Counted from the first letter of the stretch, positions 2,580 to 37,125 are shown. The stretch is 62,297 nt of DNA from Candidatus Falkowbacteria bacterium (GCA_003554785.1 PWHG01000084.1:1-62297); one strand, 5' to 3'. The notes: generated by a model from the sequence alone, not told the origin. Numbers and translations: made by a program.

Positions 2580-3302
2580 TTAAAGAAGGCTTGCGGCGGC
2601 CTTGTCGAGCAGGACTGTGCAATCGGGATGTAGCTGAAGGACCGAAGCCGGTAGCGAGGGACTGACCGGACCGCGTATCATCTTGGCGACGGCGCCGGCT
2701 TTGGTGGCGCCTGAGGCGATCAAGACGATGCGTCTCGCATGCATGATGTTTTTGATGCCCATCGTGATCGCATGGGTCGGCACATCCTCGGGTGTGTCGA
2801 AGAAACGGGCGTTGTCGAGACGGGTCTGGGCATCGAGTTCGGTGATGAAGGTTTCCTGGTTGAGCGGGGTGCCGGGTTCATTGAAGCCGATATGGCCGTT
2901 TTGACCGATACCGAGGACCTGCAGGTCGATTCGTTCATTTTTTAGCGCGTCGTTATAATCTTTGACGATGGCTTCTTTACGGGTTTCATCGCTTTTGGGC
3001 AGATGGATGTTCTTTTTGGCGATGTCGACATGGTTGAAAAGATTTCGCTTCATGAAAGAAGCGTAGCTTTGCGGGTGGTCGTGGTCGATGCCCAGATATT
3101 CATCGAGATTGTAGGTTCTGACATGCCTGAACGTGATTTCATCATTACTGTAGGTGTCGATGAGCGCGCGGTAAAGACCGAGCGGCGTCGAGCCGGTCGC
3201 CAGACCCAAGACGGTGGTCGGGTTGGAAAGAATCGTCGTCTTGAAGATTTCCGCCGCCCTTTCAGAAAGGGTCTCATAGTTGTCGTGGATTTCGACTTTC
3301 AT
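2580..3302 (-). CDS. nagB: glucosamine-6-phosphate deaminase
   Basis: 240 aa. Motifs LGLATGSTP, YNLDEY and GIGQNGHIGFNEPG are classical for NagB. Confidence 0.95.
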   Translation of the reverse strand: MKVEIHDNYETLSERAAEIFKTTILSNPTTVLGLATGSTPLGLYRALIDTYSNDEITFRHVRTYNLDEYLGIDHDHPQSYASFMKRNLFNHVDIAKKNIHLPKSDETRKEAIVKDYNDALKNERIDLQVLGIGQNGHIGFNEPGTPLNQETFITELDAQTRLDNARFFDTPEDVPTHAITMGIKNIMHARRIVLIASGATKAGAVAKMIRGPVSPSLPASVLQLHPDCTVLLDKAAASLL

Positions 3303-3306
3303 ATGC

Positions 3307-4206
3307 TCACACCTTTTTGAGGGCTTCTCTGACGTTGCCGTTGGTGGCTTCCAAAAGCGCGGTGATGCGCGCTTGGTCCTCGATGCCTGACATGAGGGCG
3401 AAAATGGCGTACTTCACCGAATCATACCGTTCGAGGTAGGCATCGATCGTCGCTTCGTCGGCTCCGGTGACTTCTTCAACGATGCGGTGCGCCCGGGAAT
3501 GCAGTTTGCCGTTGGACATCTTCACATCGACCATGAGGTTTTCATAGACTTTCCCGATTTTGACCATGCTCGCCGTGGTGATCATGTTCAAGATGAGCTT
3601 CTGTGCGGTGCCGGATTTCATGCGCGTCGAACCGGTGAGCGGTTCGGCGCCGGTGACGGTCTCGATCGGGAAATCGACGGCTTTGGCGATTTCCGAATCC
3701 TCGCTCGTGGTGATGCAGGCCGTCTTACAGCCTTTTTCCTTGGCGTATTCCACGCCGCCGATCGCATAAGGGGTCCGCCCGCTCGCCGCGATGCCGATCA
3801 CAAAATCCTTCTCGGTGAGTTTGTGTTTCTTCAGATCCTTGCGGGCGTTCTTCTTGGAGTCTTCGACATTCTCAATCGCATCACGAAGCGCCTTTTCGCC
3901 GCCGGCGATGATGCCGTTGACGAGTGTTTTGTCGACGCCGAAGGTGGGCGGGCACTCGCTTGCGTCGAGGACGCCGAGGCGGCCGCTGGTGCCGGCGCCG
4001 ATATAGAAAAGACGTCCGCCCTTGTTGAAGGTTTCGGTCACCTCGTCGACCACTTTCTCGATCTGGGGGATGGATTTTTCAACAGCGTAGGGCACCGTTT
4101 TGTCTTCGTTGTTGATGAGTTTCAGTATCGCCTCTGTTTCACACAGGTCGATATTCTTGGTGTTTTCATTTCTTTTCTCCGTGCTGATTTTGCTGATGTC
4201 TACCAT
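3307..4206 (-). CDS. murQ: N-acetylmuramic acid 6-phosphate etherase
   Basis: 299 aa. SIS-type GRLFYIGAGTSGRLGVLDASECPPTFGV and IAASGRTPY match the MurQ signature. Confidence 0.95.
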   Translation of the reverse strand: MVDISKISTEKRNENTKNIDLCETEAILKLINNEDKTVPYAVEKSIPQIEKVVDEVTETFNKGGRLFYIGAGTSGRLGVLDASECPPTFGVDKTLVNGIIAGGEKALRDAIENVEDSKKNARKDLKKHKLTEKDFVIGIAASGRTPYAIGGVEYAKEKGCKTACITTSEDSEIAKAVDFPIETVTGAEPLTGSTRMKSGTAQKLILNMITTASMVKIGKVYENLMVDVKMSNGKLHSRAHRIVEEVTGADEATIDAYLERYDSVKYAIFALMSGIEDQARITALLEATNGNVREALKKV

Positions 4207-4212: not shown

Positions 4213-5124
4213 TCACCTCTGGGTTAGTCTTGAAACGGCTAGGTGATAGGCACCCTTCACTGTTTCTGTGGTATTTTCGATGATGTGATAATCGTTTAGG
4301 TTCTCATCGAGTTCGTCAAGAACGCTTTTTTTCACATATGGTGCATGTTCCACAAAGCCGCCGTGAAGGGCGATTTTGAGGGTGGCTTTGTTGTCGATGG
4401 TCTTGGCGGCGCGGACGAGCTGAACTGCAAGCAGGCGACCTTCTTCTTTGAGAAGACGAATCGCGTCGGCGTCATGTTCGCCTGCGGCTTCACCGATGGT
4501 TTTCGACAGGGCCGCGATCGCATTTTTGTCATTGCCGTATAGGAATGACTTGATGTCGCGGTAGTCATCGGCACCGATGGCGGTGAGAAGCCTTTCTGAC
4601 AAAAGGGAGCGTTCTTGACCGCTTTCTTCTTCACAAACGACCTTCTTCAAGGCTTCGATCACGACATGATAGGCCGAACCGGGGTCGCCGAGCAGATGGC
4701 CGAAGCCACCGCGCATCATGATGTTGGTTCCATCTTTGACCATGACGGCGCTGCCGGTACCACCGATGGCCATGAGCACGGTCTCATCCGTGCCGCCGGC
4801 GACGGCGTGAAGCGCGATGTCCGCATCGCTTACGATGTTGACCGGGGCGTTGAAACGCGCTTCGAGTTCTTTCTCATAGGCGCATGCGGTTTTGAGCTGC
4901 GAGAAACCGGCGATGCCGATCTGGATGATGACGCTTGCGTTATCATCGATGGATTCGATCAGTCGGGCGATGGTTTTTGCGATGTGGGTCCTGCTTAGAT
5001 CCTGGTTGACGGCGAAATTGGAAAACCCCTGTACGGTGCGGGTGATTTCACGACCGTCACTGTCATACAGGACACCCAGTGTCTTCGTCCCGCCGCCGTC
5101 GATGGCGATCACATACTCACGCAT
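4213..5124 (-). CDS. BadF/BadG/BcrA/BcrD-type sugar kinase (GlcNAc and/or MurNAc kinase, NagK/MurK-like)
   Basis: 303 aa. N-terminal IAIDGGGTKT phosphate-1 motif and internal IGGTGS. Overlaps nagZ by 8 nt. Confidence 0.8.
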   Translation of the reverse strand: MREYVIAIDGGGTKTLGVLYDSDGREITRTVQGFSNFAVNQDLSRTHIAKTIARLIESIDDNASVIIQIGIAGFSQLKTACAYEKELEARFNAPVNIVSDADIALHAVAGGTDETVLMAIGGTGSAVMVKDGTNIMMRGGFGHLLGDPGSAYHVVIEALKKVVCEEESGQERSLLSERLLTAIGADDYRDIKSFLYGNDKNAIAALSKTIGEAAGEHDADAIRLLKEEGRLLAVQLVRAAKTIDNKATLKIALHGGFVEHAPYVKKSVLDELDENLNDYHIIENTTETVKGAYHLAVSRLTQR

Positions 5125-6688
5125 GGCTGACGGGGGAGACGCCCTTGAGCGGGCAGGTTCCTTTCAGATATTCGACCAGGACGCCGATGGCGTTGGGGGT
5201 GTATTCATATAGACAGACATAATTCTTTATCCTGTCTGTGAAGAACAAATCGTAGGGATTGCGCATCGCGATGACGTGCACATCCTCGCAGACCTCGCTC
5301 ACCGCTTCGACGAGGTCGATCTGGCCTTTGTTGATGTTGGCGTTGTAGGTCTGGATGATGATCTGCTCATGGGTTTTGGCCGCTTCTTTGATGGTTTTGA
5401 TCGCATCCGCGTCCGGGTTGGTCGCGACGGTGCGGGTTGAGAGAGCGGGCAGGGCGTTTCTTATGGCCTCGATGGCGGTTTTTTCGCCGTCGGTCTCATC
5501 AGCGATGGTGGTCGCTTCCGGTGCGATGCCGATGAAAAGCGCATTGTCTTTGAGGGCGAGCTTGTCGCCTTTGACCAGGGTCGCGGCGTCTCTTACAACG
5601 TTGTAGGCGAAATCCTTCGTCGTTTTCGATTCGACTGTGGCTTTGACCATTTCATAGGTTCTTTCGAGGTCGGGTTGCGCCATATTGGCTTTGGCTTTCA
5701 GGACACGGTTCAGACGCTCATCGATCAGGCTTTCCGCAATAAGGCCTTTTTCGACGGCCTTTTTCACATGAGCCACCGCTTCGATCTGAAGATCGCGGGC
5801 ATGACAGATGAAGACCATGTTCACGCCGGCTTCGATCGCCATGAGGGACGCCTCGACGGTGCCGTAGTTGTCCTGGATCGCCTTCATCTGCATGCCGTCG
5901 GTGACAATCAGTCCCTCGAAACCGAGGGTTTCTCTCAACAGGCCGGTCATGCACTTTTTGGACAGCGTGGTGGGCAGACCGTCCTCGGTGATGGCGGGGA
6001 AATCGATGTGGGCGCTCATGATGGCGCCGACACCGGCGTTGATGGCGTCTTTGAACGGACGTAGCTCGATCGTCTCGAGACGGTCCATCGGATAATCGAC
6101 CTTAGGCAGGGCCAAATGGGAATCGACATGGGTGTCGCCGTGACCGGGGAAATGCTTGGCGGTCGCGAGCACACGTTCACTCATTCCCTTGATGAAGGCG
6201 TTGCCGTAGTCGGATACGGTGCCGGGATCGTCAGAGAAGCTGCGAACGCCGATGACGGGATTTTTGGGGTTGTTGTTGACATCGAGGACGGGCGCGAGGT
6301 TCATGTTGATGCCGAGGGCTTCGAGTTCCTCGCCCATGTGTCTGCCGGCGCGCAAGGCGTTGTCAATGTTGTTGCTCGCGGCCAGGGTCATCGCGCCGGG
6401 GAAGAAGGTGGCGCCCTTGTGGATGCGGGTGACCATGCCGCCTTCCTGGTCGATGGTGATGAATAGCGGGATGCCGGTCGTCTCGTGGGCGAGTTTCTGA
6501 AGGTTCTGGTTGAGTTTGAAAAGTTGTGCCGGGCTTTCGACGTTACGGGTGAAAAGGATCACGTTGCCAACTTTGTGTTTCCTGATCAGTTCGATGGCAT
6601 GGTCGTCGACCTCGGTCGCGTCGAAGCCGAAAACGAACAGTTGACCGATTTTCTCTTCCAGGCTCAGGTTCATTCTGATGTCATTCAT
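5117..6688 (-). CDS. nagZ: GH3 beta-N-acetylglucosaminidase, no signal peptide
   Basis: 523 aa. KHFPGHGDTHVDSH Asp-His motif of the NagZ subgroup and GLIVTDGM nucleophile region. The N-terminus is hydrophilic. Confidence 0.9.
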   Translation of the reverse strand: MNDIRMNLSLEEKIGQLFVFGFDATEVDDHAIELIRKHKVGNVILFTRNVESPAQLFKLNQNLQKLAHETTGIPLFITIDQEGGMVTRIHKGATFFPGAMTLAASNNIDNALRAGRHMGEELEALGINMNLAPVLDVNNNPKNPVIGVRSFSDDPGTVSDYGNAFIKGMSERVLATAKHFPGHGDTHVDSHLALPKVDYPMDRLETIELRPFKDAINAGVGAIMSAHIDFPAITEDGLPTTLSKKCMTGLLRETLGFEGLIVTDGMQMKAIQDNYGTVEASLMAIEAGVNMVFICHARDLQIEAVAHVKKAVEKGLIAESLIDERLNRVLKAKANMAQPDLERTYEMVKATVESKTTKDFAYNVVRDAATLVKGDKLALKDNALFIGIAPEATTIADETDGEKTAIEAIRNALPALSTRTVATNPDADAIKTIKEAAKTHEQIIIQTYNANINKGQIDLVEAVSEVCEDVHVIAMRNPYDLFFTDRIKNYVCLYEYTPNAIGVLVEYLKGTCPLKGVSPVSHA

Positions 6689-7829
6689 AGATATGATAGC
6701 TCACTTTCTCTGCCTTGAAACGTACGGCATCTTCTCTTATTTTCTTTCTCAGTGCTTCGATGTCGATGGTGTGCTTTCGGATACTGTCGGTTCCGGTAAG
6801 CAGATCGATCATCGGATGCATGCCTTCCTTGTAGGGCGCGTTGAACGCGAACGCATCGTTCGTCTCCCGGATCAGATAAAGCAGGATGAAGCCGGTTTCG
6901 ACCGGGTTGAACAGGAATTTGTCGGTGATGTGCAGTTCGATGCCCCGGCAGAGTTCGCCTTTGTGTTTTTGGAAGGTCGGGGTGAAATACAGGGGTCTGA
7001 ACATCACACCGGGCAAATCGTAGGCGTTGATTTTTTTGATGACGGTCTCATGGTCGAGCCACGGAGCACCGATGATGTGAAACGGTCTGGCAGTGCCTCT
7101 GCCTTCGGAGAGGTTGGTCCCTTCGAACACACAGGTGGCCAAAAAGGCATAGAGCGTGTCGGTGGTGGGGATGTTCGGGGAGGGCATCACCCAGGGACGT
7201 TCGAGGATATCGTAATGCATCGCCCGGATATAGCCTTCCATCTCGACAACTTCGAGGTCGCAGCCGATTTCGTATTTTTGGTTGAAGTAATTGGCCAGTT
7301 CCCCGACGGTGAGACCGTGGCGCTGCGGCAGTTCGTAATAACCGACGAAAGAGCGGAAATCAAGATCGAGGATATTGCCTTCGACCACTTCGCCGCCGAC
7401 AGGATTGGGTCGGTCGAAGACGATGAAGCGTTTGCCGTTTTCCTTGGCCGCCATCATGGCATAGGCCATGGTGTAGATGTAGGTATAGAACCTCGCGCCG
7501 ACATCCTGGATATCGAAACAAAGGACATCGATATCGCTCAGCATTTCGGCGGTCGGTTTTTTAGTGGCCCCGTAGAGCGAGTAGACCGGCACGCCGGTTT
7601 TCTCGTCGGTGTAGGTTTCGAGACGCTCACCGGCCTGTAGATCCCCGCGGACGCCGTGTTCAGGGGCGTATAGGGCTCTTAGGTCCGTGTGGTCGGCAAG
7701 GATGTCGATGGTCGATGTGAAATCCTTCAAGACACCGGTCGGGTTGGTGATCAGACCGACGCGTTTGCCTTCGAACAGGGATTTGACTTCCAAAAACCGT
7801 TCAATTCCGACTTTAATCATTGTTTTCAC
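6681..7829 (-). CDS. namZ: DUF1343-family exo-beta-N-acetylmuramidase (NamZ/YbbC-like), no signal peptide
   Basis: 382 aa. GKRVGLITNPTGV near the N-terminus is typical of DUF1343. GTG at 7829; an alternative ATG at 7820 sits behind a GGTGA RBS. Confidence 0.8.
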   Translation of the reverse strand: MKTMIKVGIERFLEVKSLFEGKRVGLITNPTGVLKDFTSTIDILADHTDLRALYAPEHGVRGDLQAGERLETYTDEKTGVPVYSLYGATKKPTAEMLSDIDVLCFDIQDVGARFYTYIYTMAYAMMAAKENGKRFIVFDRPNPVGGEVVEGNILDLDFRSFVGYYELPQRHGLTVGELANYFNQKYEIGCDLEVVEMEGYIRAMHYDILERPWVMPSPNIPTTDTLYAFLATCVFEGTNLSEGRGTARPFHIIGAPWLDHETVIKKINAYDLPGVMFRPLYFTPTFQKHKGELCRGIELHITDKFLFNPVETGFILLYLIRETNDAFAFNAPYKEGMHPMIDLLTGTDSIRKHTIDIEALRKKIREDAVRFKAEKVSYHIYE

Positions 7830-8454
7830 CTATCTTCTCGAGATATTCCACAGCGGGTGTGGTGATGTAGACGTTCAGCATGATGAGCAGGCTCATGCCG
7901 CTGAAGATGAAAAGGACGAGCGTGAACTGTGTCAGGAGGAGTCCGAGCGGCAAGAAGAGACTGAGGACAAGCAGGATGGTTCTGAAGAAGAATTTCCCCG
8001 CCAGCATGAATGACACCTTGAAATGAAGGCTGAGTTTCAGTCTCGGGTAGACCCGTTTCACGCAGAGACTGTAGAGCGTGACAACGCCGAGGGCGACGAG
8101 TAAGATGAGTGAGATGTAGTAGCCGATTAGGTTGAACAGGGTTTCATCGGCTTCCAGACGCCCCATGTAGTAACGGGTGTTCGTAATGCCGAGGATCGCC
8201 AGAAAAATGAGGAAGAGGCTCAGTTTCAGTTTCTTGAGGAAATGTTTGCGCAGATAACCGAAATAGCCCTTGAAGATGGGCGGATCCTCGTAATCGAAAT
8301 AATCTCTGAACATGTTGTAGCCTGCGGAAAGCGCCGGAATGATTGTAATGATGGGAATCATCATGATGATCATCATGATGTTGATCAGGATGATTCTCAG
8401 AATCCAGTCTGCGATGGTGTTGAGAATGGTGATGAGACGGTTGTCGTCTTTCAT
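7813..8454 (-). CDS. DUF624 (YesL-like) membrane protein associated with sugar ABC importers
   Basis: The ORF track starts at 8463 (GTG inside the RBS). I prefer the ATG at 8454 (MKDDNRL...) behind AAAGGAG. Hydrophobic core plus PALSAGYNMFRDYF..PPIFKGYF resembles DUF624. Confidence 0.6.
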   Translation of the reverse strand: MKDDNRLITILNTIADWILRIILINIMMIIMMIPIITIIPALSAGYNMFRDYFDYEDPPIFKGYFGYLRKHFLKKLKLSLFLIFLAILGITNTRYYMGRLEADETLFNLIGYYISLILLVALGVVTLYSLCVKRVYPRLKLSLHFKVSFMLAGKFFFRTILLVLSLFLPLGLLLTQFTLVLFIFSGMSLLIMLNVYITTPAVEYLEKIGENND

Positions 8455-8472
8455 TCCGGACACTCCTTTCTT

Positions 8473-9492: not shown

Positions 9493-10417
9493 AATGGCTC
9501 TCTCCTATCTTGAAGCCTTTCGCGATCAGGGCGATACAGACGAGCATGAAGATGACCGTACCGACATAGATCCAGGCCATGGCGCTGGAAAGACCCCAGT
9601 TCTGGCGGTTGAGCTCATCGGTGATGATGGTGCTCACCGGAGAGGTCAGGAAGGTATTGACAAGGGCGAAGACAGTGACGGTGATGATATGCGGCGTGAC
9701 ATTCGGCAAGGTGATGAGCCAGAACATCTCATAGGCGGTCGCGCCTTCGATTTTCGCGGCTTCATAGAGGTGGCGGGGAATCGATTGGATACTGGCCAAA
9801 AACAATAGAATCGGTACGCCGGCGAGGGCGAGGATCGCATAGATGCGGTCGATCAGACCGACGATGAAGGTGACCAGGAAAGCCGGGACATCGGCTTGCA
9901 AGAGATAGAACTCGAGATCGAAAATCTGGTCGATGCCCTGTTGGGCGAGAATCTCGTTCATGGCTTCGCCGCCGCCCATGGCGGTGGCGACCGCGGCCGA
10001 ATTCAGGATGACCGGGACGAAGAAAATCGCGCGGACGATGGCACGGCCTTTGAACTCCATGTTCAAAAGCACCGCGATGAACAGACTGAAGATCAGCAGG
10101 ACGGGGAGGTTGATGAGGACATCAGTGGTGGTCTCGATCAGTTCGATTCTGAAGCTCGAAGCCGAGGTGACATGGGTGTTCCAGGCGTAAAGATAGTTCC
10201 CGATGCCGCTGAATTCGGTGATGATCTCTCCGGCGCGCGGGGTGAGATCATAGAAACTGTAGCGCAGGGTGTTGACCATTGGAATCATGAACAGAAACAA
10301 AAATCCCGTGATCCAAGGTGCAAGAAAGATGAAGGCCCAGATCAGTTTCTGGGTGCTGTAGGAGAGTTCGAACTTCTTCTTGCGGGGGAAGTTTTTCCCG
10401 TTATTCTCATCAGGCAT
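9482..10417 (-). CDS. carbohydrate ABC transporter permease (MalF-type)
   Basis: 311 aa, EAA loop EAAKIEGATAYEMFWLITLPNVTP, GGGAGGGG RBS. Confidence 0.9.
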   Translation of the reverse strand: MPDENNGKNFPRKKKFELSYSTQKLIWAFIFLAPWITGFLFLFMIPMVNTLRYSFYDLTPRAGEIITEFSGIGNYLYAWNTHVTSASSFRIELIETTTDVLINLPVLLIFSLFIAVLLNMEFKGRAIVRAIFFVPVILNSAAVATAMGGGEAMNEILAQQGIDQIFDLEFYLLQADVPAFLVTFIVGLIDRIYAILALAGVPILLFLASIQSIPRHLYEAAKIEGATAYEMFWLITLPNVTPHIITVTVFALVNTFLTSPVSTIITDELNRQNWGLSSAMAWIYVGTVIFMLVCIALIAKGFKIGESHYEG

Positions 10418-16001: not shown

Positions 16002-16002
16002 G

Positions 16003-28633: not shown

Positions 28634-31600
28634 GTTTTGAGGATATGCTTTCTGATGACGAACACGAGACCGAACGTCCAGACGCCGATGACGCCGGCGA
28701 TGATACCGACAAGCGCGCCGCTCACACCGTCGTTGTCCGGTGCTTCATCGTCATCGCCGCCATTGTCACCGTTGCCGCCGTTGTCGCCGTTGTCGTTGCC
28801 GCCGCTGCCATCGATGGGGACGCATTCACCATTTTCTTCGTAATAACCTTCGTCGCAATCGAGCCGGTCTTGAGGTTCGACGGTGCTCTCCCACGGGAAT
28901 CCGACATAATCGGTCCAGTAGTGGGTGAGCAGCCTGTCGATGGACCCGGTGACATTGGTGTGTTGGCTCAGAAGGGTGTTATAGGTGAAAAACGCGCTGC
29001 CGACGATGCTGTCGAACTGGTTGTTGTAGCGCAGTTGTTCGAGGAGTTCGCTCGGGTCGCTCCAAGAGCCGTCGGCGTAGCGATAGAAGCCGTGGCCGAT
29101 AATCAGGTCGACACCGTGTTCCTCGGTCAGTTGCGCCCACCAAAGTGCGAGGTCGGCGTAGGGGGCCACGCTGTGGTCGAACTCCCAGTAGAGCTGCGGG
29201 TTGATATAGTGGAGCCAGCCTTCTTCCACCCATTTCTTGGTGTCAGCGTATTGGGCGCGGTAGGATGAGAGTGCGCCGGGGGAAGTGTTCGAGCCGCCGT
29301 CTTCCTGCTGGTTGCTCGCCCAGATGCCGAAGGGGCTGATGCCGAACTTGACATGGGCGCCGGTGGTGGTGTTGTGGTCCTCAATCTGATAGAAAAGGTC
29401 CCGGACCAATATATCCACATTCTCACGGCGCCAGTCATGAAGATCGAGATTGTTGTGGTTTTCGCGGCTGTAGGCGCCGGAATCCTGTGCATTGGACATG
29501 CCGCCGTAACTATAGAAATAGTCGTCGAAATGGATGCCGTCGATATCGTAGTTGTCCATCAGTTCCTGGACGATGTTGTAGATATGTTCGCGGACTTCGG
29601 GTTCGCCTGGATTGAGGATGAGTCTGTCGTTATGATCCTGAATGACCAGGTGGGGATTCAGTTTCGCGAAGTTGTCATCATGAAGCGCGGAAAGCTGGCT
29701 TGCCTTGGAACCGGTTCCCGAGGAGACACGATAAGGGTTCAACCAGGCATGGAGCTCGATGCCTCGAAGATGGGCCTGTTCGATGATGAAGGCAAGGACA
29801 TCCCAGCCCGGATCTTCGCCCTCGGTACCGGTCAGATACCTTGAGAAGGGGGCGTACTCGGAATCATAGAACGCATCGTTCATCGGTCTGACCTGGAAGA
29901 AGATGGTGTTGAAATTGTGGGCGGCGATCCGATCGAGCATGGTGATGATCTCTTCTTTGTAGCCCGCTTCGTCCTGATGCAGGCCGATATCGATATTGAA
30001 GACGGTCGCGACCCAGATGGCGCGGATCTCCGCATCGCGTTCGGCATAGGTCGGCAAGGCGATTGGAACATCGGAATTGTAGTAGGTGACCTGTTCGCCG
30101 TTGCGGATGACCCAGGGGATATCCTCGGAGACCGGAAGGTTCATCCGAATCCGTTCGGTGTAGACTTCTGTCTCGTTGCCGGCCTTATCGGCGGCGTAAT
30201 ATTCCAGGGTGAAGGTGACGCTGGTCGCTAGGAATATCGGTTCGTCGTAGACGGCCCACGAACTCCAGGTGCGACCGTTGTGCAACCGGTAATAAACGGT
30301 GTCGTCGCTTTCGATTTCCAGATCGAACGCCTCGGTATAATACCAGCCGTCAAAATCGGCGTCGGTGATGATCAGGGGTTGTTCGGGCGGGGTCTGGTCG
30401 ATGGTGATGGTCTCACTCACGGTATTCTCACAGCCGGTGGCGTTTCTCACGGTGATGGTATGGGTGCCCTCCTGGTCGAAGACGAGCGGGGATGTATAGC
30501 TCACCCAGGCGCCATCGTCGATACGGAACTCGACAGCGGGGGCCTCATGGTCGATGCTGAGTGTGAGCGACTTGTAGTAAGGATGGGTGCCGTCGCCGTC
30601 GAAGAGGAAAGTGGCCGGCGCATAACACTCCTCGACGATTTTGAACCCGTAGGTCACGGTTTCACTCTCGACACCCTCGTCGTCGATGGTCTTCGCACGG
30701 ATGAAATAGCTGCCGAGTGAATCAAGGACGATCGGTCCGGTGTAAGGTTGGAACTCGCCGATTGAGCCATGGTTGATGGCGACAAGGATGGTGTCGATGT
30801 CGGCGCTCAAAGTCAGCGAGGAGCCGATGACATAATCGTCGCCGACACTGTTGCCGACGACTTCGATATGGGGGACGGCCGTGTTTTGTTTGTCGATGTC
30901 GATGGTGGCGCTTCGGATGAGACTTTGTTCGCCCTCGCTGTCGGTCGCCCGCACATAAAGAACGTAACTGCCGTTTTCGGTGATTTCGAACGGCTCGTCA
31001 TAAAGGTGCCAGTCGCCCGAACCGAGACGGTAGTGGATGGTGTGTTCGGAATGGAGGGTCACGGTCACGTTGCTGTGATAGCTGCCATTGACAAGGTCCC
31101 CGTCCAGGCTGACTGTCGGCGCTTCGACCGAACTTTCCTGCCACACGCTCAAGGGACGCTCCGTCCAGTAGGAACCTGAGACGGTGTTCATGTTGGTGCC
31201 GTTCAGGAAAGACGCCGAGTACATGATTGACCCGGTGATTTCAGGATATTTCTGGTTGTAAAGAAGCTGTGTGGCGATTTCATCGTCGAGCCAGTTGTGC
31301 GCATTGGCGATCGAATGCCCGATGATCAGGTCGACATCGGTGCCCCGGGTGATATCGGCCCACCAGTCGACCACGTCCGCATAGGGTGCGAGACTGTGGT
31401 TCATCGGCCAATAGACCTGTGGATTGATGTAGTGGACCCATTCTTCTTCCACCCAGCGCTTGGAATCCGCATACTGCGAAAGCAGACTCGACAAGGCGAA
31501 CTGCGAGGTGTTCGACCCGCCGTCCACTTGACTATCGCTGGCCCAAAGACCGAAGGGACTGATGCCGAAACGCACCATCACATCATGAAGGTTGTTATGG

Positions 31601-32445
31601 GCATCAACCGCTTCTTTGACGCCTCTGACGACGTCGTTAACCTGCTCGACACGGAATTCGGCGAGCGTCTGTCCGTCTTCTTTGTAGGTATCATAGGTAT
31701 CGTGGTCGGAATCGATGCCCGAGTACGGATAGAAGTAATCATCGAAATGGATGCCGTCGACCGAGTACTTATCCATCAGTTCCTCGACCACATCAACGAT
31801 GTATTGTTTGACCGCCGGTTCGCCAGGGTTCAGGATATAGGAATAGATGCCGTCATTGTTCGGTTTGCTCGGAACGACGAGGTCGGGATTCTGCACGGCG
31901 AAATTGTCATTGTGAAGGGTGTTGAGGTAATCGTTTTTGTTCATGGATGAGTTGCCGACACGGTAGGGATTCATCCAGGCATGGAACTCGATGCCGTTTT
32001 GATGGGCGGTCTCGATCATGTATTCCATCACGTCCCATCCGGGATCCTGGCCTTCGGTACCGGTCAGCCAGCGGCTCCAGGTCGCATAGTCCGATTCGTA
32101 GAATGCGTCGTTTTGCGGACGCACCTGGAACAAGATCGCGTTCATGTTGTTGGCGAGCATGTCGGCGATCACCTGGTCATAGGCGTCTTTGTATTGTACC
32201 TCGGAGGTGTGTTGCGGCATGTTGATGTTCCAGACGGTCGCGACCCATACGCCGCGCATCTCGGAATCCTGTTCCTCATAGGCCTTTGGAATCATCACCG
32301 GGTCGCTGCTATTAAAGTGATAGATGTTTTGATCGTTTCTGACAAGTGGTTCGAGGGTGCTGCCCGCATCCAGGTTCGCCGCGCCGACGATGAGGGTGGC
32401 GATGAAGATGAGCAGGGCGGCGATCATGATTGTATATTTCTTCAT
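28630..32445 (-). CDS. 1271-aa surface protein with two GHL10 (DUF187, YddW/DigH/YngK-like) glycosidase-like modules
   Basis: Signal-like N-terminus. Module 1: MRGVWVATVWNINMP...FQVRPQNDAFYES...IEFHAWMNPYRV. Ig-like middle region. Module 2: IRAIWVATVFNIDIG...FQVRPMNDAFYDS...IELHAWLNPYRV. Then a G/D/N-rich linker and a C-terminal TM anchor. Confidence 0.8.
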   Translation of the reverse strand: MKKYTIMIAALLIFIATLIVGAANLDAGSTLEPLVRNDQNIYHFNSSDPVMIPKAYEEQDSEMRGVWVATVWNINMPQHTSEVQYKDAYDQVIADMLANNMNAILFQVRPQNDAFYESDYATWSRWLTGTEGQDPGWDVMEYMIETAHQNGIEFHAWMNPYRVGNSSMNKNDYLNTLHNDNFAVQNPDLVVPSKPNNDGIYSYILNPGEPAVKQYIVDVVEELMDKYSVDGIHFDDYFYPYSGIDSDHDTYDTYKEDGQTLAEFRVEQVNDVVRGVKEAVDAHNNLHDVMVRFGISPFGLWASDSQVDGGSNTSQFALSSLLSQYADSKRWVEEEWVHYINPQVYWPMNHSLAPYADVVDWWADITRGTDVDLIIGHSIANAHNWLDDEIATQLLYNQKYPEITGSIMYSASFLNGTNMNTVSGSYWTERPLSVWQESSVEAPTVSLDGDLVNGSYHSNVTVTLHSEHTIHYRLGSGDWHLYDEPFEITENGSYVLYVRATDSEGEQSLIRSATIDIDKQNTAVPHIEVVGNSVGDDYVIGSSLTLSADIDTILVAINHGSIGEFQPYTGPIVLDSLGSYFIRAKTIDDEGVESETVTYGFKIVEECYAPATFLFDGDGTHPYYKSLTLSIDHEAPAVEFRIDDGAWVSYTSPLVFDQEGTHTITVRNATGCENTVSETITIDQTPPEQPLIITDADFDGWYYTEAFDLEIESDDTVYYRLHNGRTWSSWAVYDEPIFLATSVTFTLEYYAADKAGNETEVYTERIRMNLPVSEDIPWVIRNGEQVTYYNSDVPIALPTYAERDAEIRAIWVATVFNIDIGLHQDEAGYKEEIITMLDRIAAHNFNTIFFQVRPMNDAFYDSEYAPFSRYLTGTEGEDPGWDVLAFIIEQAHLRGIELHAWLNPYRVSSGTGSKASQLSALHDDNFAKLNPHLVIQDHNDRLILNPGEPEVREHIYNIVQELMDNYDIDGIHFDDYFYSYGGMSNAQDSGAYSRENHNNLDLHDWRRENVDILVRDLFYQIEDHNTTTGAHVKFGISPFGIWASNQQEDGGSNTSPGALSSYRAQYADTKKWVEEGWLHYINPQLYWEFDHSVAPYADLALWWAQLTEEHGVDLIIGHGFYRYADGSWSDPSELLEQLRYNNQFDSIVGSAFFTYNTLLSQHTNVTGSIDRLLTHYWTDYVGFPWESTVEPQDRLDCDEGYYEENGECVPIDGSGGNDNGDNGGNGDNGGDDDEAPDNDGVSGALVGIIAGVIGVWTFGLVFVIRKHILKT

Positions 32446-33662
32446 TTTATTTCACCTTTTGTAAGCAGTTTTTTGATGTTGGAAAGGCCGGGTTTGGGTG
32501 CGCCTTCATCGACGAAGGTCTTGAAGGTGAAAAACACGTTGCCTTTCACGGTGTCGTGCGCGTTGGTGAATTTGAGCTGGTTGACGACCTCGCGCGGATT
32601 TTCGAACTCACCTTCTTGGCCCTGTCGGTAGGCCGCATGGCCGATATAAAGATCGACGGGACTGTCTTCACAGACGTCCACCCAGAATTTGAGGATGTCG
32701 GCGAAGGGCGCGATCGGGTGACCGAATTCCCAGTAGATCTGCGGCACGATATAGTCGACCATGCCCGCTTTCACCCACCGGTAGGAATCGGCATACTGAT
32801 TGTCATAGCTCTCCGAACACTTCGGATCGGTATTCGACCCTTTCTCATCATTCACGCGGTTGCGCCAGATACCGAAGGGGCTGACACCGAAACGCAGGTT
32901 CTTGTCGACATTCTTGATGGCCTTGTGGACACGGTCGATGACGTCAGTGACGTGCATGCGTCTGAAATCCCCGAGGGTTTGCGTCTCGTCATCGCGGGCT
33001 GCGTAATCCGCGCTGTCATCGGCGGCGGGGTCGAGGCCGGCGTAAGGATAGAAGTAATCATCCCAGTGGATGGCATCGATGTCATAGTTCTCGGCGATTT
33101 CGACCATGGAATCAACGATGAACTGCTTGACGGCTTCACGCGCCGGATTCATGATGATCTGGCCCTTGGTGTCGAGCAGGAGGTGTTCTGGATGACGCTT
33201 GGCGAAATTCAGGTCGTCACAGGCTTTCAGATAGTCTTCCATGTCCAGTTGGCTTTGCATCGATACACGGTAGGGATTGCACCAGGCATGGAACTCGAGA
33301 TTACGGCGGCGCGCTTCGCTGATGACGAAGTTCATCGCGTCGAAGGGCGGCTCTTTACCCTCTTCGCCCGTGAGGTAACGACTGTAAGGATTCAGTTTTG
33401 ATGCGTAGAATGCGTCATTGGTGGTCCGCACATGGAAAATCACGGCATTCAGGTTGAACTCGACGCAGGTATCAAGCATTCTGATGACGGCGGCCTTGTA
33501 TTTTTCGGGGTCCTCGGTCGTGGGCATATCGATGTTGACGACATTCGAGACCCACATGGCCCGGAAGGGTTTTTCACTGTATTTCCCGGGAATTTCGACT
33601 TGTTTGCCGGTACCGTAGTAGACGACCGGTTCGGTTTCGTTTTTGTACTTGTAAAGTTTCAT
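32442..33662 (-). CDS. GHL10 (DUF187) glycosidase-like protein, no signal peptide
   Basis: The ORF track starts at 33674 (GTG abutting the RBS). I prefer the ATG at 33662 (MKLYKYK...). Motifs FRAMWVSNVVNIDMP, FHVRTTNDAFYAS and LEFHAWCNPYRV. Confidence 0.8.
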   Translation of the reverse strand: MKLYKYKNETEPVVYYGTGKQVEIPGKYSEKPFRAMWVSNVVNIDMPTTEDPEKYKAAVIRMLDTCVEFNLNAVIFHVRTTNDAFYASKLNPYSRYLTGEEGKEPPFDAMNFVISEARRRNLEFHAWCNPYRVSMQSQLDMEDYLKACDDLNFAKRHPEHLLLDTKGQIIMNPAREAVKQFIVDSMVEIAENYDIDAIHWDDYFYPYAGLDPAADDSADYAARDDETQTLGDFRRMHVTDVIDRVHKAIKNVDKNLRFGVSPFGIWRNRVNDEKGSNTDPKCSESYDNQYADSYRWVKAGMVDYIVPQIYWEFGHPIAPFADILKFWVDVCEDSPVDLYIGHAAYRQGQEGEFENPREVVNQLKFTNAHDTVKGNVFFTFKTFVDEGAPKPGLSNIKKLLTKGEIK

Positions 33663-33677
33663 GATCGCATGCACTCC

Positions 33678-34988
33678 TTATTCGTAGTAGTAGGATAGGT
33701 AAGGTTTATGGGCGTCTTTCAGTTTTTCGAAAACGGTTTTCGCGGTTTCGATGGATCTTGTCAGGGGATGGATTTGCAAGGCGAGCAGGGCTTTGTCGAG
33801 ATCGCGTTCATGGATCGCATCACAAAGCAGTTCCTCGAAATCCTTCATCGAGCGCACAAGGCCACGGATGGAAGGTGGAAGGCCGCCGATATGGACCGGA
33901 AGCGGCCCGTGTCTGGTGATGCGGGCGGTGACTTCGATGGCGCATCCGTTGGGAAGGTCGGTGATATGGCCGTTGTTGATGGTGTTGATCACCTGATAAT
34001 CCCGCTTGTCGTTATGGATGGAATCGATGATGTTGCATGCGGCGTCACTATAATAGGCGCCGCCCCGTTGTTCGAGTTCTTTCGGTTTCGTATCGAGGGT
34101 CAGATCCTTGTATTTCTCGAAAAGACTCTTTTCAAGCCGCATGACGGTCTCGGCGCGGGTCTCGCCTTTGCCGTAGTGCGCCATCGCTTTTTCGAACATC
34201 TCGTCATAGCGGTAGAAATACTTGTGATAGGGACTCGGATAGACAGACAGCGCGGTGAGGAACTCGTGTGACCAGGCGAGCGGATCGATGTTGTTCATCG
34301 TCATCTGTTTGTCTTTCACGTTGTCGATGAGCTTTTTCAGCTGATCCTTGCTGCGCTTATAGACATGGAAAACGTAGGAAAGGTGGTTCAGTCCGCCGAA
34401 ATAAGGAATCAGCTGGTGCGGTTTCGTGTTCAGCACTTCGGCGAAATGGGTGGTCATGTTGATGGGCACGTTGCATACGCCGATGTAGCGTTCGAAATCG
34501 GTGTGGCGGAACACCGCTTCGCTGACGATGCCGGCGGGGTTGGTGAAATTGATCAGCCACGCCTGGGGACAAAGGGTCTTCATCTGTTCGATGATTTCAT
34601 AGATGACCGGCACGGTTCTAAGCGCTTTGAAGACGCCGCCGGCGCCATTGGTTTCCTGACCGAGCATGCCGTGTTCGAAGGGGATGCGTTCATCATGGAC
34701 ACGCGCGGCAAGCTGGCCGACCCGAAACTGGGTGGTCACGAAGTCCGCATCTTCGAGGGCTTTTCGCCTGTTTAAAGTCATATGGACCTCGATCGGGACC
34801 CCCGCTTTTTCGACCATGCGCTTCGCGAGATTGCCGACGATGTCCAGTTTTTCCTTGCCTTCTTCGATGTCGACAAGCCAGATTTCGCTGACAGGAAGTT
34901 CCTTATGACGCTTGATGAATCCTTCGATCAGTTCGGGCGTATAGCTCGAACCGCCACCGATTGTCGCAATTTTCAATCCTTTTTTCAT
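33678..34988 (-). CDS. GH4 family glycosidase (6-phospho-beta-glucosidase/ChbF-CelF-like)
   Basis: N-terminal KIATIGGGSSYTPELI Rossmann motif and NFTNPAG. The ATG at 34988 overlaps the upstream stop (ATGA). Confidence 0.8.
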   Translation of the reverse strand: MKKGLKIATIGGGSSYTPELIEGFIKRHKELPVSEIWLVDIEEGKEKLDIVGNLAKRMVEKAGVPIEVHMTLNRRKALEDADFVTTQFRVGQLAARVHDERIPFEHGMLGQETNGAGGVFKALRTVPVIYEIIEQMKTLCPQAWLINFTNPAGIVSEAVFRHTDFERYIGVCNVPINMTTHFAEVLNTKPHQLIPYFGGLNHLSYVFHVYKRSKDQLKKLIDNVKDKQMTMNNIDPLAWSHEFLTALSVYPSPYHKYFYRYDEMFEKAMAHYGKGETRAETVMRLEKSLFEKYKDLTLDTKPKELEQRGGAYYSDAACNIIDSIHNDKRDYQVINTINNGHITDLPNGCAIEVTARITRHGPLPVHIGGLPPSIRGLVRSMKDFEELLCDAIHERDLDKALLALQIHPLTRSIETAKTVFEKLKDAHKPYLSYYYE

Positions 34989-35965
34989 AAACCACAACCA
35001 CTTTCCATTAGGTTTTTTTCTATTGTCTTATCCTGCTTGATGCCGAGTTCGTCAAGGCCGCTCAGATAGGCACCGGTCATCGGGTTGAATTTCGGTCTCA
35101 CCACATGGGCGGCGGGACATTCTTCCTTGAGTATTTTTCTGAAGGTGTTCATCAGGGGTGTCTTTTCATCACCGAAGACCCTTCCGCCGACGACGACGGG
35201 GGCGTTTTCGGTATCGATGCCGACTTGACGCATCACACCTGCGGTCTGTCTGGCGATGAAGGTCGCGATCCGTGTCAGAATCTCCACCGAAACCGGATCG
35301 CCTTTCGCCGCCGCCTCATACACTAGGCCAGTGATGCTTCCGTAGGTCTTTTTGTCTATCTTCTGCTTCGGATAAAGCAGGTCGACGACCGCTTCCATCG
35401 ATGATACCCCGAGCAATGCGGGGATGGTTGTTTTGAGCACGGTGTCCCGGTAGGTCAGTTCATCGGCCCTGAAGGCGTAATGGAGGCCTTCTCTGGCGAT
35501 GTCGAGGCCGCCGCCGTAGATGCCGAGGGTGTAGCCCAAAGAACGTAGGATGGCGCGTTTTCCTTCTTTGTTGATGGCGGCGGCGTTGGTGCCGGTACCG
35601 CTGATCGCCACCGCGCCATAGGGTTTTGAAAGCCCGCTTCTTAGAACCAGCCAGGCATCGTTGACCACCCTGAAGGGGATGGTGCCGAACATAGTCTCAC
35701 AAGCGGCTTCAAGCTTGATGAAGTCCGATTCGAGATCGGCCCCCGAAAGCCCCAGGAAGACATAGTCGATATCCCCGGCGACGAGTCCGAGTGTCTCAAG
35801 TGCGTCATCGAACAATCCTTTCAGCACACGATCGAAATGTCTGCCGTCCGAAGAAGCGTGATTGCTTCCTTTTCCGAGCGTCTCATAAAGCAGGCGGCCC
35901 CGGTCGTCGAACACGCCGAGGTGGGTCTTGGTACCGCCGCCGTCTATCGCGATAATTCTTTTCAT
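34985..35965 (-). CDS. BadF-type sugar kinase (second copy)
   Basis: 326 aa, IAIDGGGTKT and ISGTGTNA motifs. Overlaps anmK by 4 nt. Confidence 0.8.
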   Translation of the reverse strand: MKRIIAIDGGGTKTHLGVFDDRGRLLYETLGKGSNHASSDGRHFDRVLKGLFDDALETLGLVAGDIDYVFLGLSGADLESDFIKLEAACETMFGTIPFRVVNDAWLVLRSGLSKPYGAVAISGTGTNAAAINKEGKRAILRSLGYTLGIYGGGLDIAREGLHYAFRADELTYRDTVLKTTIPALLGVSSMEAVVDLLYPKQKIDKKTYGSITGLVYEAAAKGDPVSVEILTRIATFIARQTAGVMRQVGIDTENAPVVVGGRVFGDEKTPLMNTFRKILKEECPAAHVVRPKFNPMTGAYLSGLDELGIKQDKTIEKNLMESGCGL

Positions 35966-37125
35966 AATGTCTCCTTTTCATCAAAGTAGTGATGGATTGT
36001 GCCGAGAATCACTGCCTGTTTCGCGCCGGTCGCACGCGTCACATTGCTCGGCAGGCCCGAAAGAGTCTCATTGGCGAGGATGATGAAGGCGGCCGCTTCC
36101 TTGTTGTCTTTGTCGATACCGTTTTTATCGAATGTCTTCACGCGGACCGAAGGCATCATCGTTTTCAGCGTCTCCATCAGGAAGCGGTTGGATGCGCCGC
36201 CGCCGGAGAAGAGGATTTCTTTGATGTCATAATATGGGAAAACGTATTGTTCATAAGCGTCGCGGATGCTGCACGCGGTGAACATGGTGAGCGTCCTGAT
36301 GATGTCATCGGGATAATGGTTTTCGAGGTAGGGGGTGATGATCCTGCGGGTTGCGTCATCGCCGAAAAGCTCGCGCCCGGTGGATTTCGGGGGTTTTTGG
36401 AGGAGGTAGGGATGATGCATCAGTGCCCCCATGAGCGTATCGATCATCATACCTTTTGCAGCGTGGGCACCGTCATTGTCATAAGGTTTCCCATAAAGCA
36501 TCCCCATGGCCTGATCGATCATCATGTTCGCGGGACCGGTGTCGAAGGCCAGCACATCGTCTAAGCGATTCGAGCCGGGGACGACGGTCAGATTGGAGAT
36601 TCCGCCGAGATTGTGAAGGGCGATGTCCCTGCCCTCGTGGGCGAAAAGGACGAAATCGGCATAGGGAACAAGCGGTGCGCCCTGCCCGCCCTGAGCGACG
36701 TCGGCCGCTCTGAAGTTCGCGACCACGGTCTTTTTCAGCCGGTTGGCGATGACGGCGCTTTCTCCGATTTGCAGTGTCGAAGGTACGCCTTCCTTTTCGT
36801 CGCCGATGTGATAGAGCGTCTGACCGTGAGAGGCGACGAAGTCAACCGAATCAAGTGCGATGCCGGCGATTTCGCACAATCGTACGCAGGCGGCGGCGAA
36901 CGCTTCACCGAGTTCCACGTTTATTGAACAGATTTCATTCAGGGCCGCGGTCTTTTTTTCAATCATCGAGCGCAGCCGTTTTTCAAGATTTTTTTCAAAA
37001 GGAACGGTCGTCGAGCAGAGGATTTCCATTGACGTACCGGTGAAGTTGCCCTCGATATCGGCCATCACAACGTCGATTCCATCAAGTGATGTGCCACTCA
37101 TGATTCCAATACCGCGTCGTTTCAT
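35962..37125 (-). CDS. anmK: anhydro-N-acetylmuramic acid kinase
   Basis: 387 aa. GIMSGTSLDGIDV N-terminus and the overall UPF0075/AnmK pattern. AAGGAGG RBS. Confidence 0.9.
   Translation of the reverse strand: MKRRGIGIMSGTSLDGIDVVMADIEGNFTGTSMEILCSTTVPFEKNLEKRLRSMIEKKTAALNEICSINVELGEAFAAACVRLCEIAGIALDSVDFVASHGQTLYHIGDEKEGVPSTLQIGESAVIANRLKKTVVANFRAADVAQGGQGAPLVPYADFVLFAHEGRDIALHNLGGISNLTVVPGSNRLDDVLAFDTGPANMMIDQAMGMLYGKPYDNDGAHAAKGMMIDTLMGALMHHPYLLQKPPKSTGRELFGDDATRRIITPYLENHYPDDIIRTLTMFTACSIRDAYEQYVFPYYDIKEILFSGGGASNRFLMETLKTMMPSVRVKTFDKNGIDKDNKEAAAFIILANETLSGLPSNVTRATGAKQAVILGTIHHYFDEKETL

Follow-up and report, generated by a model that had tools for sequence, protein, structure and literature searches.

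A 62,297-nucleotide (nt) stretch of DNA (GCA_003554785.1 PWHG01000084.1:1-62297; hereafter the window, to whose full length all coordinates refer) was analysed for a locus encoding enzymes of peptidoglycan (murein) breakdown, together with surface proteins and importers. Between 2580 and 37125, the listing of open reading frames (ORFs) gave 23 non-overlapping minus-strand ORFs of 213-1271 amino acids (aa), with a gene spacing of mostly 1-12 nt or an overlap of 4-17 nt. An earlier interpretation made from the bare sequence (the sequence-only reading) had counted 26 genes in this interval; the gaps are too small for three more. The three sizeable gaps that it reported were recovered at 19875-19940, about 21570/21627-21754 and 24170-24335, the left edge of the second (21570 or 21627) being set by the choice of start for the solute-binding protein (SBP) gene. 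Its extent of about 35 kb proved too small: the unit extends to about position 44.3 kb and takes in a MurR regulator, a D-lactate dehydrogenase (D-LDH) with the electron-transfer flavoprotein (Etf) subunits EtfA and EtfB, and a NAGPA-type glycosidase. The MurR gene (37253-38107) lies just beyond the earlier coordinates, and the minus strand upstream of anmK was found by hidden Markov model (HMM) searches to encode the MurR/RpiR regulator, an FAD-linked GlcD-type dehydrogenase, EtfA and EtfB. A lipoprotein gene (42077-42769) and the NAGPA gene (42779-44329) run divergently from the main block. The dehydrogenase was counted in the locus because it stands directly upstream of murR wherever orthologous sequence reaches that far, and NAGPA because it is co-directional and adjacent in Acholeplasma oculi and in Mariniplasma and Tenericutes metagenome-assembled genomes (MAGs). 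The locus is thus roughly 42 kb long (about 2540-44330) and carries the following genes, in which GH stands for glycoside hydrolase, MurNAc for N-acetylmuramic acid, GlcNAc for N-acetylglucosamine and P for phosphate.

2580-3302, minus strand: NagB, glucosamine-6-P deaminase (TIGR00502, 269.5 bits against a cut-off of 236.9), without N-terminal hydrophobic segment
3307-4206, minus strand: MurQ, MurNAc-6-P etherase (TIGR00274, 377.9 against 302; NF003915, 404.8 against 168)
4213-5124, minus strand: BadF-type sugar kinase 1, MurK/NagK-like (HMM), without export signal
5117-6688, minus strand: NagZ, GH3 beta-N-acetylglucosaminidase (NF003740, 227.1 against 207), without signal peptide
6681-7829, minus strand: NamZ (GH171), exo-beta-N-acetylmuramidase (NamZ_N, E=2.8e-87; NamZ_C, E=1.8e-46), without signal peptide
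7813-8463, minus strand: DUF624/MusI-like membrane protein with six transmembrane helices, accessory to ATP-binding cassette (ABC) transport (HMM and inspection of termini)
8473-10417, minus strand: permease pair A, two BPD_transp_1 proteins (8473-9492, 9482-10417; HMM)
10419-12986, minus strand: DUF5696 protein, 855 aa, extracellular, N-terminal membrane anchor (HMM and structure model)
12998-13639, minus strand: Yip1-family polytopic membrane protein (HMM and inspection of termini)
13629-15110, minus strand: 493-aa "TPR" protein with signal peptide, NHL/PknD-like six-bladed beta-propeller, TPR and C-terminal transmembrane helix (HMM and inspection of termini)
15114-16932, minus strand: permease pair B, BPD_transp_1-type (15114-16001, 16003-16932; HMM)
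16944-19874, minus strand: 976-aa SBP with N-terminal membrane anchor, its N-terminal ~580 aa fused to an SBP_bac_1 domain
19941-21569, minus strand: Ig-SBP, a lipoprotein SBP with immunoglobulin (Ig)-like domain (SBP_bac_1; lipobox LTAC)
21755-24169, minus strand: 804-aa, very acidic surface protein with signal peptide, a string of Ig-like beta-sandwiches and C-terminal transmembrane helix (inspection of termini and structure model)
24336-27584, minus strand: 1082-aa lipoprotein with four Big_2 domains, right-handed beta-helix and Amidase_2 domain (MurNAc-L-Ala amidase; HMM; lipobox VAAC)
27581-28633, minus strand: beta-lactamase/PBP-fold serine hydrolase, cytoplasmic (beta-lactamase fold, E=9e-64; motifs SLTK(59) and HTG(297))
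28630-32445, minus strand: double-GHL10 surface protein, 1271 aa (Pfam E=3e-118), with signal peptide and C-terminal transmembrane helix, no LPXTG
32442-33674, minus strand: single-domain GHL10 protein, cytoplasmic (Pfam E=3e-59; Cwp19, PDB 5oq2, E=4e-80)
33678-34988, minus strand: GH4 NAD-dependent glycosidase of the 6-phospho-beta-glycosidase branch (N- and C-terminal GH4 domains)
34985-35965, minus strand: BadF-type sugar kinase 2 (HMM); the gene overlaps both neighbours
35962-37125, minus strand: AnmK, anhydro-MurNAc kinase (NF007142, 461.4 against 435; PF03702, E=8e-97, positions 3-365 of 367)
37253-38107, minus strand: MurR/RpiR-family regulator (HTH_6 and SIS; 71-83 % identity across relatives)
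38205-39599, minus strand: FAD-linked D-2-hydroxyacid (D-lactate) dehydrogenase, GlcD/LctD-like (HMM)
39596-41643, minus strand: EtfA, with a Cys-rich N-terminal extension, and EtfB (HMM)
42077-42769, plus strand: 230-aa acidic lipoprotein (lipobox ITAC), with a weak homologue in L005
42779-44329, plus strand: NAGPA-family phosphodiester glycosidase, secreted (HMM)

Every family named in the sequence-only reading was confirmed by Pfam and NCBIfam models, and its sorting of the products into extracellular and cytoplasmic agrees with inspection of the termini, by which ten enzymes lack an export signal. MurQ carries SIS and GKRP domains and, like GH4, AnmK, both BadF kinases and the single-domain GHL10, has no N-terminal hydrophobic segment when judged by eye; none was found in the maximal ORFs of NagZ, NamZ and the beta-lactamase-fold protein. 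BadF kinase 1 resembles a solved MurNAc/GlcNAc kinase (PDB 8zo3, E=2e-20). The best curated match of the beta-lactamase-fold protein is PBP4B/YfeW (139 bits, below the cut-off of 385). It had previously been called AmiE: the lack of an export signal stands, the AmiE identity is unproven, and the protein is a candidate muropeptide amidase or peptidase. NamZ belongs to a family whose function is that of an exo-beta-N-acetylmuramidase (PMC8054146).

For GH4, the best PDB matches are Geobacillus 6-phospho-beta-glucosidases (E~1e-156, near full length), and no NCBIfam equivalog cut-off was reached. A start at TTG was rejected, an exact look-up giving no match; the true start lies three codons downstream. 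GH4 chemistry needs oxidation at C3 of the glycon, and MurNAc cannot be this glycon because its C3 is blocked by the 3-O-lactyl ether. On this reasoning, GlcNAc-6P-beta-1,4-(anh)MurNAc, made by the adjacent and overlapping BadF kinase 2 (only 24 % identical to BadF kinase 1), is the more likely substrate. The GH4 genes of orthologous loci (L005, L006, L010, L011, L016, L017) fall into two subtypes, with 66-73 % and 40-48 % identity to the window GH4. BadF kinase 2 was found only beside the former; constant co-occurrence of the two was considered and rejected, as it fails in L011, where this GH4 subtype is present and the kinase absent.

The three GHL10 domains of the locus share their fold family (PF02638) and proposed active-site residues with Cwp19 of Clostridioides difficile and with DigH of E. 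coli, also a GHL10 member. The active site proposed for Cwp19 comprises Trp36, Arg132, Asp195-Asp196-Tyr197, Gln295/Tyr297 and Gly328 (PMC5765458). All three domains keep the motifs WV(S/A), NPYR, DDYFY, PQxYW and IGH; comparison of the cytoplasmic protein with Cwp19 itself shows DDYFYP, NPYR and PQxYW retained. Cwp19 is a lytic transglycosylase that also forms some reducing ends (PMC6016235), and DigH degrades denuded glycans, being specific for such strands (PMC12288456). Both enzymes serve autolysis or division in walled cells and possess modules that target them to the wall or septum, whereas here one GHL10 is cytoplasmic and the other two are fused in a membrane-tethered protein within a catabolic operon. 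Neither an LPXTG motif nor a Pfam wall-binding domain was found in the surface proteins of the locus, which are anchored by lipid or transmembrane helix only.

Import is represented by two permease pairs and two SBPs, that is, four BPD_transp_1-type permeases and two SBP_bac_1 proteins. No domain of a phosphotransferase system (PTS) occurs in any locus ORF, in agreement with the earlier proposal of ABC import in place of the MurP PTS. The true start of Ig-SBP is probably MNMKK or MKK. No significant sequence match to the N-terminal half of the 976-aa SBP was obtained in the PDB; the weak matches resemble carbohydrate-binding module (CBM) family 35 (E about 0.25-0.5). The DUF5696 protein, for which no description was found in the open-access literature, was modelled with AlphaFold from 57 homologues (predicted local distance difference test score, pLDDT, 89; predicted template-modelling score, pTM, 0.87). 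Foldseek matched the model to GH129 (3,6-anhydro-D-galactosidase, alpha-N-acetylgalactosaminidase; E about 1e-29 to 1e-21) and GH101 (E~1e-14), with template-modelling (TM) scores of about 0.5-0.7, and further to GH36, GH31 and GH13. At the sequence level, a profile comparison with ZgGH129 (8rzk) was marginal and confined to the N-terminal domain (E=5e-4), and a plain search against the PDB was insignificant (E=0.38). The modelled fold points to a putative (beta/alpha)8 glycosidase of GH129/GH101-like fold, in the sense of working like these enzymes and not of family membership. The 804-aa protein was modelled as a chain of Ig-like sandwiches (pLDDT 86). A catalytic role for it was rejected, the structure giving generic Ig-array matches only (cadherins, S-layer proteins; TM about 0.1), and the model suggests that it is probably an adhesin or substrate holder. 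Named members of the 804-aa family occur only under the names of wall-less lineages; those of DUF5696 do so almost exclusively, one match being labelled Bacteroidetes.

MurQ frees D-lactate from MurNAc-6-P and leaves GlcNAc-6-P. Since D-lactate is thus released, a D-lactate dehydrogenase/Etf module would complete the pathway, and, judged from their family assignments, the D-LDH and EtfAB encoded here could oxidise it. The FAD_binding_4/FAD-oxidase_C dehydrogenase gene adjoins etfA and etfB, an adjacency kept in about 10 orthologous loci. A FAD-dependent GlcD-like dehydrogenase is likewise encoded with EtfA and EtfB in LctBCD of Acetobacterium woodii; the difference is that the genes described here stand with murR and those of MurNAc catabolism, presumably for disposal of the D-lactate from MurQ. 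EtfA (39596-40795) has an N-terminal extension of about 70 aa that is rich in Cys (CPFD...CKVCKLC...C) and, by analogy with bifurcating Etf complexes, may be a ferredoxin-like Fe-S domain. The secreted NAGPA-type enzyme would, judged from the known reaction of its family, cleave the GlcNAc-1-P-6-MurNAc linkage units of wall polymers.

The regulatory features of the locus, among them a sequence like the catabolite-responsive element (cre), are as follows.

2543-2576, minus strand: hairpin and T-run after nagB (AGACACC...GGTGTCTTTTCTTTT), read from the sequence and not flagged by the pattern scan
19903-19922, minus strand: G+C-rich stem-loop after the Ig-SBP gene, between the two SBP genes (arms CCCCCTTT...AAAGGGGG)
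21705-21731, minus strand: hairpin and T-run after the 804-aa gene (GTACCCGTTTTCGCGGGTACTTTTT), likewise found by reading
24227-24255, minus strand: promoter of the 804-aa gene, sigma-70-type TTGACA-17-TAGAAT, its -35 box lying within the cre-like palindrome TGACAGCGTTTTCA (24241-24254)
37126-37252, minus strand: murR-anmK intergenic region, with the murR terminator hairpin and T-run (37222-37249) and the anmK promoter (-10 TATAAT)
37188-37198, minus strand: AAACGCTTACA site upstream of anmK
37205-37214, minus strand: CTGAAAAAAA box upstream of anmK
38130-38180, minus strand: murR promoter TTGTAA-17-TATAAT with upstream TG, bracketed by an inverted AAACGNTTACA pair (sequence reading)

A third exact copy of AAACGNTTACA lies upstream of anmK, and no other exact match occurs in the 62 kb. 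The TGAAAAAAACAACC box upstream of anmK is kept in most orthologous loci, and at the promoter of the 804-aa gene TTGACAGCGYTTTCA is exact in 11 of 12 orthologous loci, with one mismatch in the twelfth. The evidence for cre was limited to this exact, cross-genome-conserved site; the loose consensus TGWNANCGNTNWCA (one mismatch or none) was discarded, 24 sites having been found against 7.8 expected, many of them coding. The arms CCCCCTTT and AAAGGGGG stand at the equivalent place in L084 and L085, and so in three genomes despite a difference of about 20 points in G+C; the stem-loop may be an attenuator or mRNA stabiliser, and the hairpin after nagB is likely to be the terminator that closes the locus. 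For MurR, all MurR/RpiR equivalog models remained below cut-off (for example, 160 bits against 378). The arrangement is taken to comprise four or five jointly controlled transcription units, with a MurR/RpiR repressor that probably senses MurNAc-6-P and conserved palindromes at three promoters that would link the units. As a separate observation, CTGAAAAAAA/TGAAAAAAACAACC boxes (21667-21676, 37205-37214) recur 60-100 nt upstream of several locus promoters in many genomes.

These surface enzymes could also serve as a weapon first and a source of food second: the amidase and GHL10 protein would lyse living neighbours and the debris would then be harvested by the importers and cytoplasmic enzymes, a murein-free cell being immune to its own lysins. 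Endo-acting enzymes are indeed tethered on the surface beside adhesin-like Ig, NHL and CBM-like proteins, and Cwp19-type GHL10 enzymes cause autolysis of C. difficile (PMC6016235). In a study by RNA stable-isotope probing (SIP), Acholeplasma was the first to assimilate 13C-labelled dead E. coli cells, and why was asked there; it was the fastest assimilator of bacterial biomass, though that biomass was heat-killed, and it is precisely dead cells that were fed (PMC4628116). The locus itself is without toxin, secretion-system or outer-membrane-breaching genes, and its MurR-type repressor and cre-like site look like catabolite control. We therefore consider a primary role in attack unlikely, while bacteriolytic use is compatible with a catabolic system for foreign peptidoglycan.

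Relatives were found by scanning GTDB genomes with the cytoplasmic GHL10 and then by tblastn of all window proteins. All GHL10 relatives at 55-66 % identity are Mariniplasma, Acholeplasmataceae, "Tenericutes", Izemoplasmatales and Acholeplasma oculi ATCC 27350; the next are gut Bacilli MAGs at about 40 % and walled Actinomycetes, Bacillus and Bacteroidota at 35-41 %. The right half of the locus has the order EtfB-EtfA-LDH-MurR-AnmK-(BadF2)-GH4-GHL10-GHL10x2-Blac-amidase-p804 in relatives, and the left half the order p804-SBP-SBP-permeases-NHL/TPR-Yip1-DUF5696-permeases-DUF624-NamZ-NagZ-BadF-MurQ-NagB. The left-half order is identical in the complete genome of the cultured Mariniplasma anaerobium (AP024412.1; L084, L088), where conservation runs from GH4 through NagB. 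In one Tenericutes MAG contig (L005 and L085) the whole unit is complete, with the two halves contiguous. Cultured A. oculi (L010) has NAGPA-LDH-MurR-AnmK-GH4-GHL10-GHL10x2-Blac-amidase-p804, with D-LDH beside murR, no BadF2, and NAGPA first in the co-directional block. Several Izemoplasmatales MAGs have the right half.

Full synteny was thus met only in lineages described as peptidoglycan-less, two cultured Mollicutes among them; the orders Acholeplasmatales and Izemoplasmatales are so described (PMC10868615, PMC8397711). A neighbour-joining tree of concatenated LDH, MurR, AnmK and GHL10 (1494 sites) parts Izemoplasmatales from Acholeplasmataceae, as in taxonomy, and joins the window to the Mariniplasma side by a long branch. 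As the tree follows taxonomy, it indicates vertical inheritance from a time before the split between the two orders. Recent horizontal transfer from a low-G+C Acholeplasma was rejected because the locus genes (0.64-0.77) and both flanks agree in their G+C content at third codon positions (GC3), which makes recent import unlikely. Outside the locus, the closest relatives with a name that were found for a CDP-alcohol phosphatidyltransferase (about 48962-49582) come from Liberiplasma polymorphum, Acholeplasmatales and Izemoplasmataceae, Liberiplasma being an anaerobe described as cell-wall-less. An identical AnmK was met on metagenome contigs alone, and the sample behind one of these bears the label SL_8KL_010_SED. 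The host most likely comes from soda-lake sediment and is a free-living, wall-less member of the Acholeplasmatales/Izemoplasmatales radiation.

It is on this evidence that ordinary recycling has to be judged, in which a walled Firmicute would salvage its own wall turnover as B. subtilis and E. coli do. The core enzymes are all classical recycling enzymes, 62 kb cannot prove an organism wall-less, and some relatives of wall-less clades retain peptidoglycan genes. Against this, full synteny is confined to the peptidoglycan-less lineages (PMC10868615), and the non-locus gene and the flank composition place the window in the wall-less clade. The large endo-acting enzymes are tethered to the surface and have no wall-anchoring motifs; the last steps of the pathway are NagB and lactate oxidation, and salvage genes of the AmgK/MurU type were not found in the window. 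Recycling of the cell's own wall is very unlikely, since relatives and synteny point to a wall-less lineage. Where the sequence-only reading had proposed foreign or shed wall as the substrate, foreign peptidoglycan is retained and shed wall given up as unlikely.

A different amino-sugar polymer (chitin or chito-oligosaccharides, capsules or teichoic acids) might instead be the target, the MurNAc enzymes forming a side branch. Catabolism of GlcNAc and chitobiose likewise makes use of NagZ, NagB, GH4 and BadF kinases, and ChbF of E. coli is a relative of GH4. The DUF5696 fold resembles that of alpha-N-acetylgalactosaminidases, and NAGPA acts on GlcNAc-1-P diesters. Domain searches of the ORFs, however, detected no GH18, GH19, GH20 or lytic polysaccharide monooxygenase domain, and five families specific for MurNAc or murein (MurQ, AnmK, NamZ, Amidase_2 and GHL10/Cwp19) are present here and kept in every complete orthologous locus. 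Another polymer as the main substrate is accordingly most improbable, and the view that the locus serves peptidoglycan and not chitin, already put forward from the sequence, is borne out by this gene content.

Among known systems, the murQ-murR-murP-amiE-nagZ-namZ cluster of B. subtilis likewise brings together MurQ, an RpiR-type MurR, NagZ, NamZ and a beta-lactamase-fold protein. There, the glycan is taken apart stepwise, starting at its non-reducing end, and NagZ, AmiE and NamZ are secreted, NamZ with a signal peptide (PMC8054146). The NamZ described here has none, so that the earlier claim of a shift of NagZ and NamZ to the cytoplasm is supported. In the present locus NagZ, NamZ and the beta-lactamase-fold protein would act after import, and two ABC systems replace the MurP PTS; the kinases and AnmK are needed because uptake is by ABC systems and not by this PTS. 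Amidase_2, the double GHL10, the cytoplasmic GHL10, GH4, D-LDH/Etf, NAGPA and five accessory proteins are additions. The unit measures about 42 kb against six genes in B. subtilis, and its host clade has no wall to recycle. The recycling route of E. coli and Pseudomonas (AmpG-NagZ-AmpD-AnmK-MurQ) is alike in that cytoplasmic AnmK, NagZ and MurQ act on imported, unphosphorylated fragments that end in anhydro-MurNAc, and a PBP4B/YfeW-like gene is linked to murQ in E. coli murQP-yfeW. It differs in that AmpG, AmpD, LdcA and Mpl are missing here, ABC systems with large tethered binding proteins carry out import, one locus gathers genes that are scattered there, and the outcome is catabolic only. 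With polysaccharide utilisation loci (PULs) of Gram-positive bacteria the locus shares its logic, in which an endo-enzyme is tethered, import depends on SBPs, exo-digestion takes place inside the cell and the ATPase is encoded elsewhere, whereas the substrate (murein), the unusual size and the presence of DUF5696, NHL-TPR, Yip1, DUF624 and a CBM-like SBP fusion between permease genes set it apart. MurNAc catabolic genes of wall-less Mollicutes are known from Spiroplasma (murP/murQ; PMC3563533, PMC4607517), but as a two-gene, genome-inferred PTS route for the monosaccharide, without machinery for polymer breakdown.

Taken as a whole, the locus is read as serving a wall-less lineage in the catabolism of foreign peptidoglycan, with a probability that we put at roughly three in four. 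The gene content is as observed, and the enzyme steps are drawn from family knowledge; GH4 and the five accessory membrane or surface proteins had been left without a role in the sequence-only reading. Outside the cell, the Amidase_2 lipoprotein would strip stem peptides from murein and the double-GHL10 protein would cut the glycan to products that partly end in 1,6-anhydro-MurNAc. The secreted NAGPA-type enzyme may remove GlcNAc-1-P-linked wall polymers, DUF5696 may act as an additional glycosidase, and the 804-aa Ig-like protein and the CBM-like and NHL domains probably hold the substrate. Two SBP-dependent ABC systems, powered by an ATPase encoded elsewhere, would bring in unphosphorylated oligosaccharides and muropeptides. 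In the cytoplasm, the third GHL10, NagZ and NamZ would dismantle the glycan from the non-reducing end, and the beta-lactamase-fold hydrolase would handle peptide-bearing MurNAc. AnmK and the two BadF-type kinases would make MurNAc-6-P and GlcNAc-6-P, with GH4 as a phosphorylate-then-cleave bypass, probably on the GlcNAc-6P disaccharide named above. MurQ would then give GlcNAc-6-P and D-lactate, the latter oxidised by the FAD D-LDH/EtfAB, and NagB, with a NagA encoded elsewhere, would give fructose-6-P.

Several points weigh against this interpretation. No ABC ATPase gene was found in the window, nor in the M. anaerobium locus; an ATPase shared among ABC importers and encoded elsewhere is usual in Firmicutes. 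Of the degradation to fructose-6-P plus lactate proposed earlier, MurQ and NagB are confirmed, but the NagA that it needs is not among the window ORFs; one relative has a NagA-like amidohydrolase two genes after nagB. Etf is absent from the A. oculi locus and BadF kinase 2 from some orthologous loci. What GH4, DUF5696, NAGPA and the beta-lactamase-fold protein act on is guesswork, and localisation was judged by eye from N- and C-termini, not with a trained predictor. The window holds no marker gene and no peptidoglycan-synthesis gene (Rfam and tRNA scans of it likewise gave no marker RNA), so that its organism's lack of a wall is something we infer. Its G+C content of 51-54 % is about 20 points above that of all relatives found, and at least one Izemoplasmatales MAG has been reported to carry peptidoglycan-synthesis genes (PMC7761423).

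A shorter variant cassette was observed in "Bacilli bacterium" MAGs from gut and other sources (L020-L034; ~30 % G+C). It comprises a beta-lactamase-fold gene, two or three GHL10 genes, a CBM-like SBP, a permease pair, NHL/TPR and Yip1, and its permeases are 63-72 % identical to permease pair B. This suggests that the GHL10 enzymes and the import module move as a set also outside Acholeplasmatales and Izemoplasmatales. A Bacilli-type cassette (GHL10, SBP976-like protein, permeases of 67-69 % identity) also occurs on a contig of 33 % G+C labelled as a Prevotella sp. MAG (L027), which is probably mis-binned.

Elsewhere in the window, two neighbouring small proteins (770-1498) each have an N-terminal zinc ribbon (CPxCG...CxxCG) and C-terminal transmembrane helices. 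A second GH3 gene (735 aa; N- and C-terminal domains and an Fn3-like domain) overlaps an aldo/keto reductase gene at 51718-54913, with no obvious tie to the locus. The right end (55152-62297), which encodes a 1048-aa GLUG-motif protein and a PD40/beta-propeller protein, has a GC3 of 0.34-0.42 against 0.6-0.77 elsewhere and may represent a foreign island or a join made in assembly.

The core of the pathway is the classical MurNAc and anhydro-muropeptide route. New in comparison with B. subtilis, E. coli and Spiroplasma are the PUL-like architecture for murein, the cytoplasmic NagZ, NamZ and GHL10, ABC import with unusual accessory proteins, the GH4/kinase pair, the linkage to D-LDH/Etf and NAGPA, and conservation across lineages without a wall of their own. 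In the open-access literature, to which the search was confined, no description of such a locus was found for Izemoplasma, Acholeplasma or Tenericutes. Peptidoglycan is among the largest pools of bacterial necromass, and dedicated machinery for breakdown of the polymer is poorly described outside recycling. More tentatively, and at somewhat less than even odds, the free-living wall-less bacteria (Acholeplasmatales, Izemoplasmatales and the soda-lake lineage) may be murein specialists with undescribed biochemistry. On this view, a surface-to-cytoplasm machine of ~40 kb would have been kept after loss of the cell's own peptidoglycan and over order-level divergence, and could be displayed without self-harm, so that the cells could grow on dead bacteria and perhaps also lyse live ones. 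DUF5696 would then represent a new glycosidase family and the cytoplasmic GHL10 would work on imported glycan oligomers; the kinase-plus-GH4 route would cleave its phosphorylated disaccharide, the NAGPA-type enzyme would remove teichoic-acid linkage units and D-LDH/Etf would capture the lactyl group of MurNAc. The locus offers testable roles for DUF5696, the clade-specific surface protein, the cytoplasmic GHL10 and GH4 in a MurNAc context, and the two cultured carriers, Mariniplasma anaerobium and Acholeplasma oculi, make direct testing possible. The locus is also a candidate part of the answer to the RNA-SIP result, as a mechanistic lead to why Acholeplasma were the first consumers of dead cells. 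If the locus does serve to consume foreign murein, these free-living wall-less relatives of the Mollicutes, mainly discussed as fermenters of DNA or sugar, would gain a defined niche.

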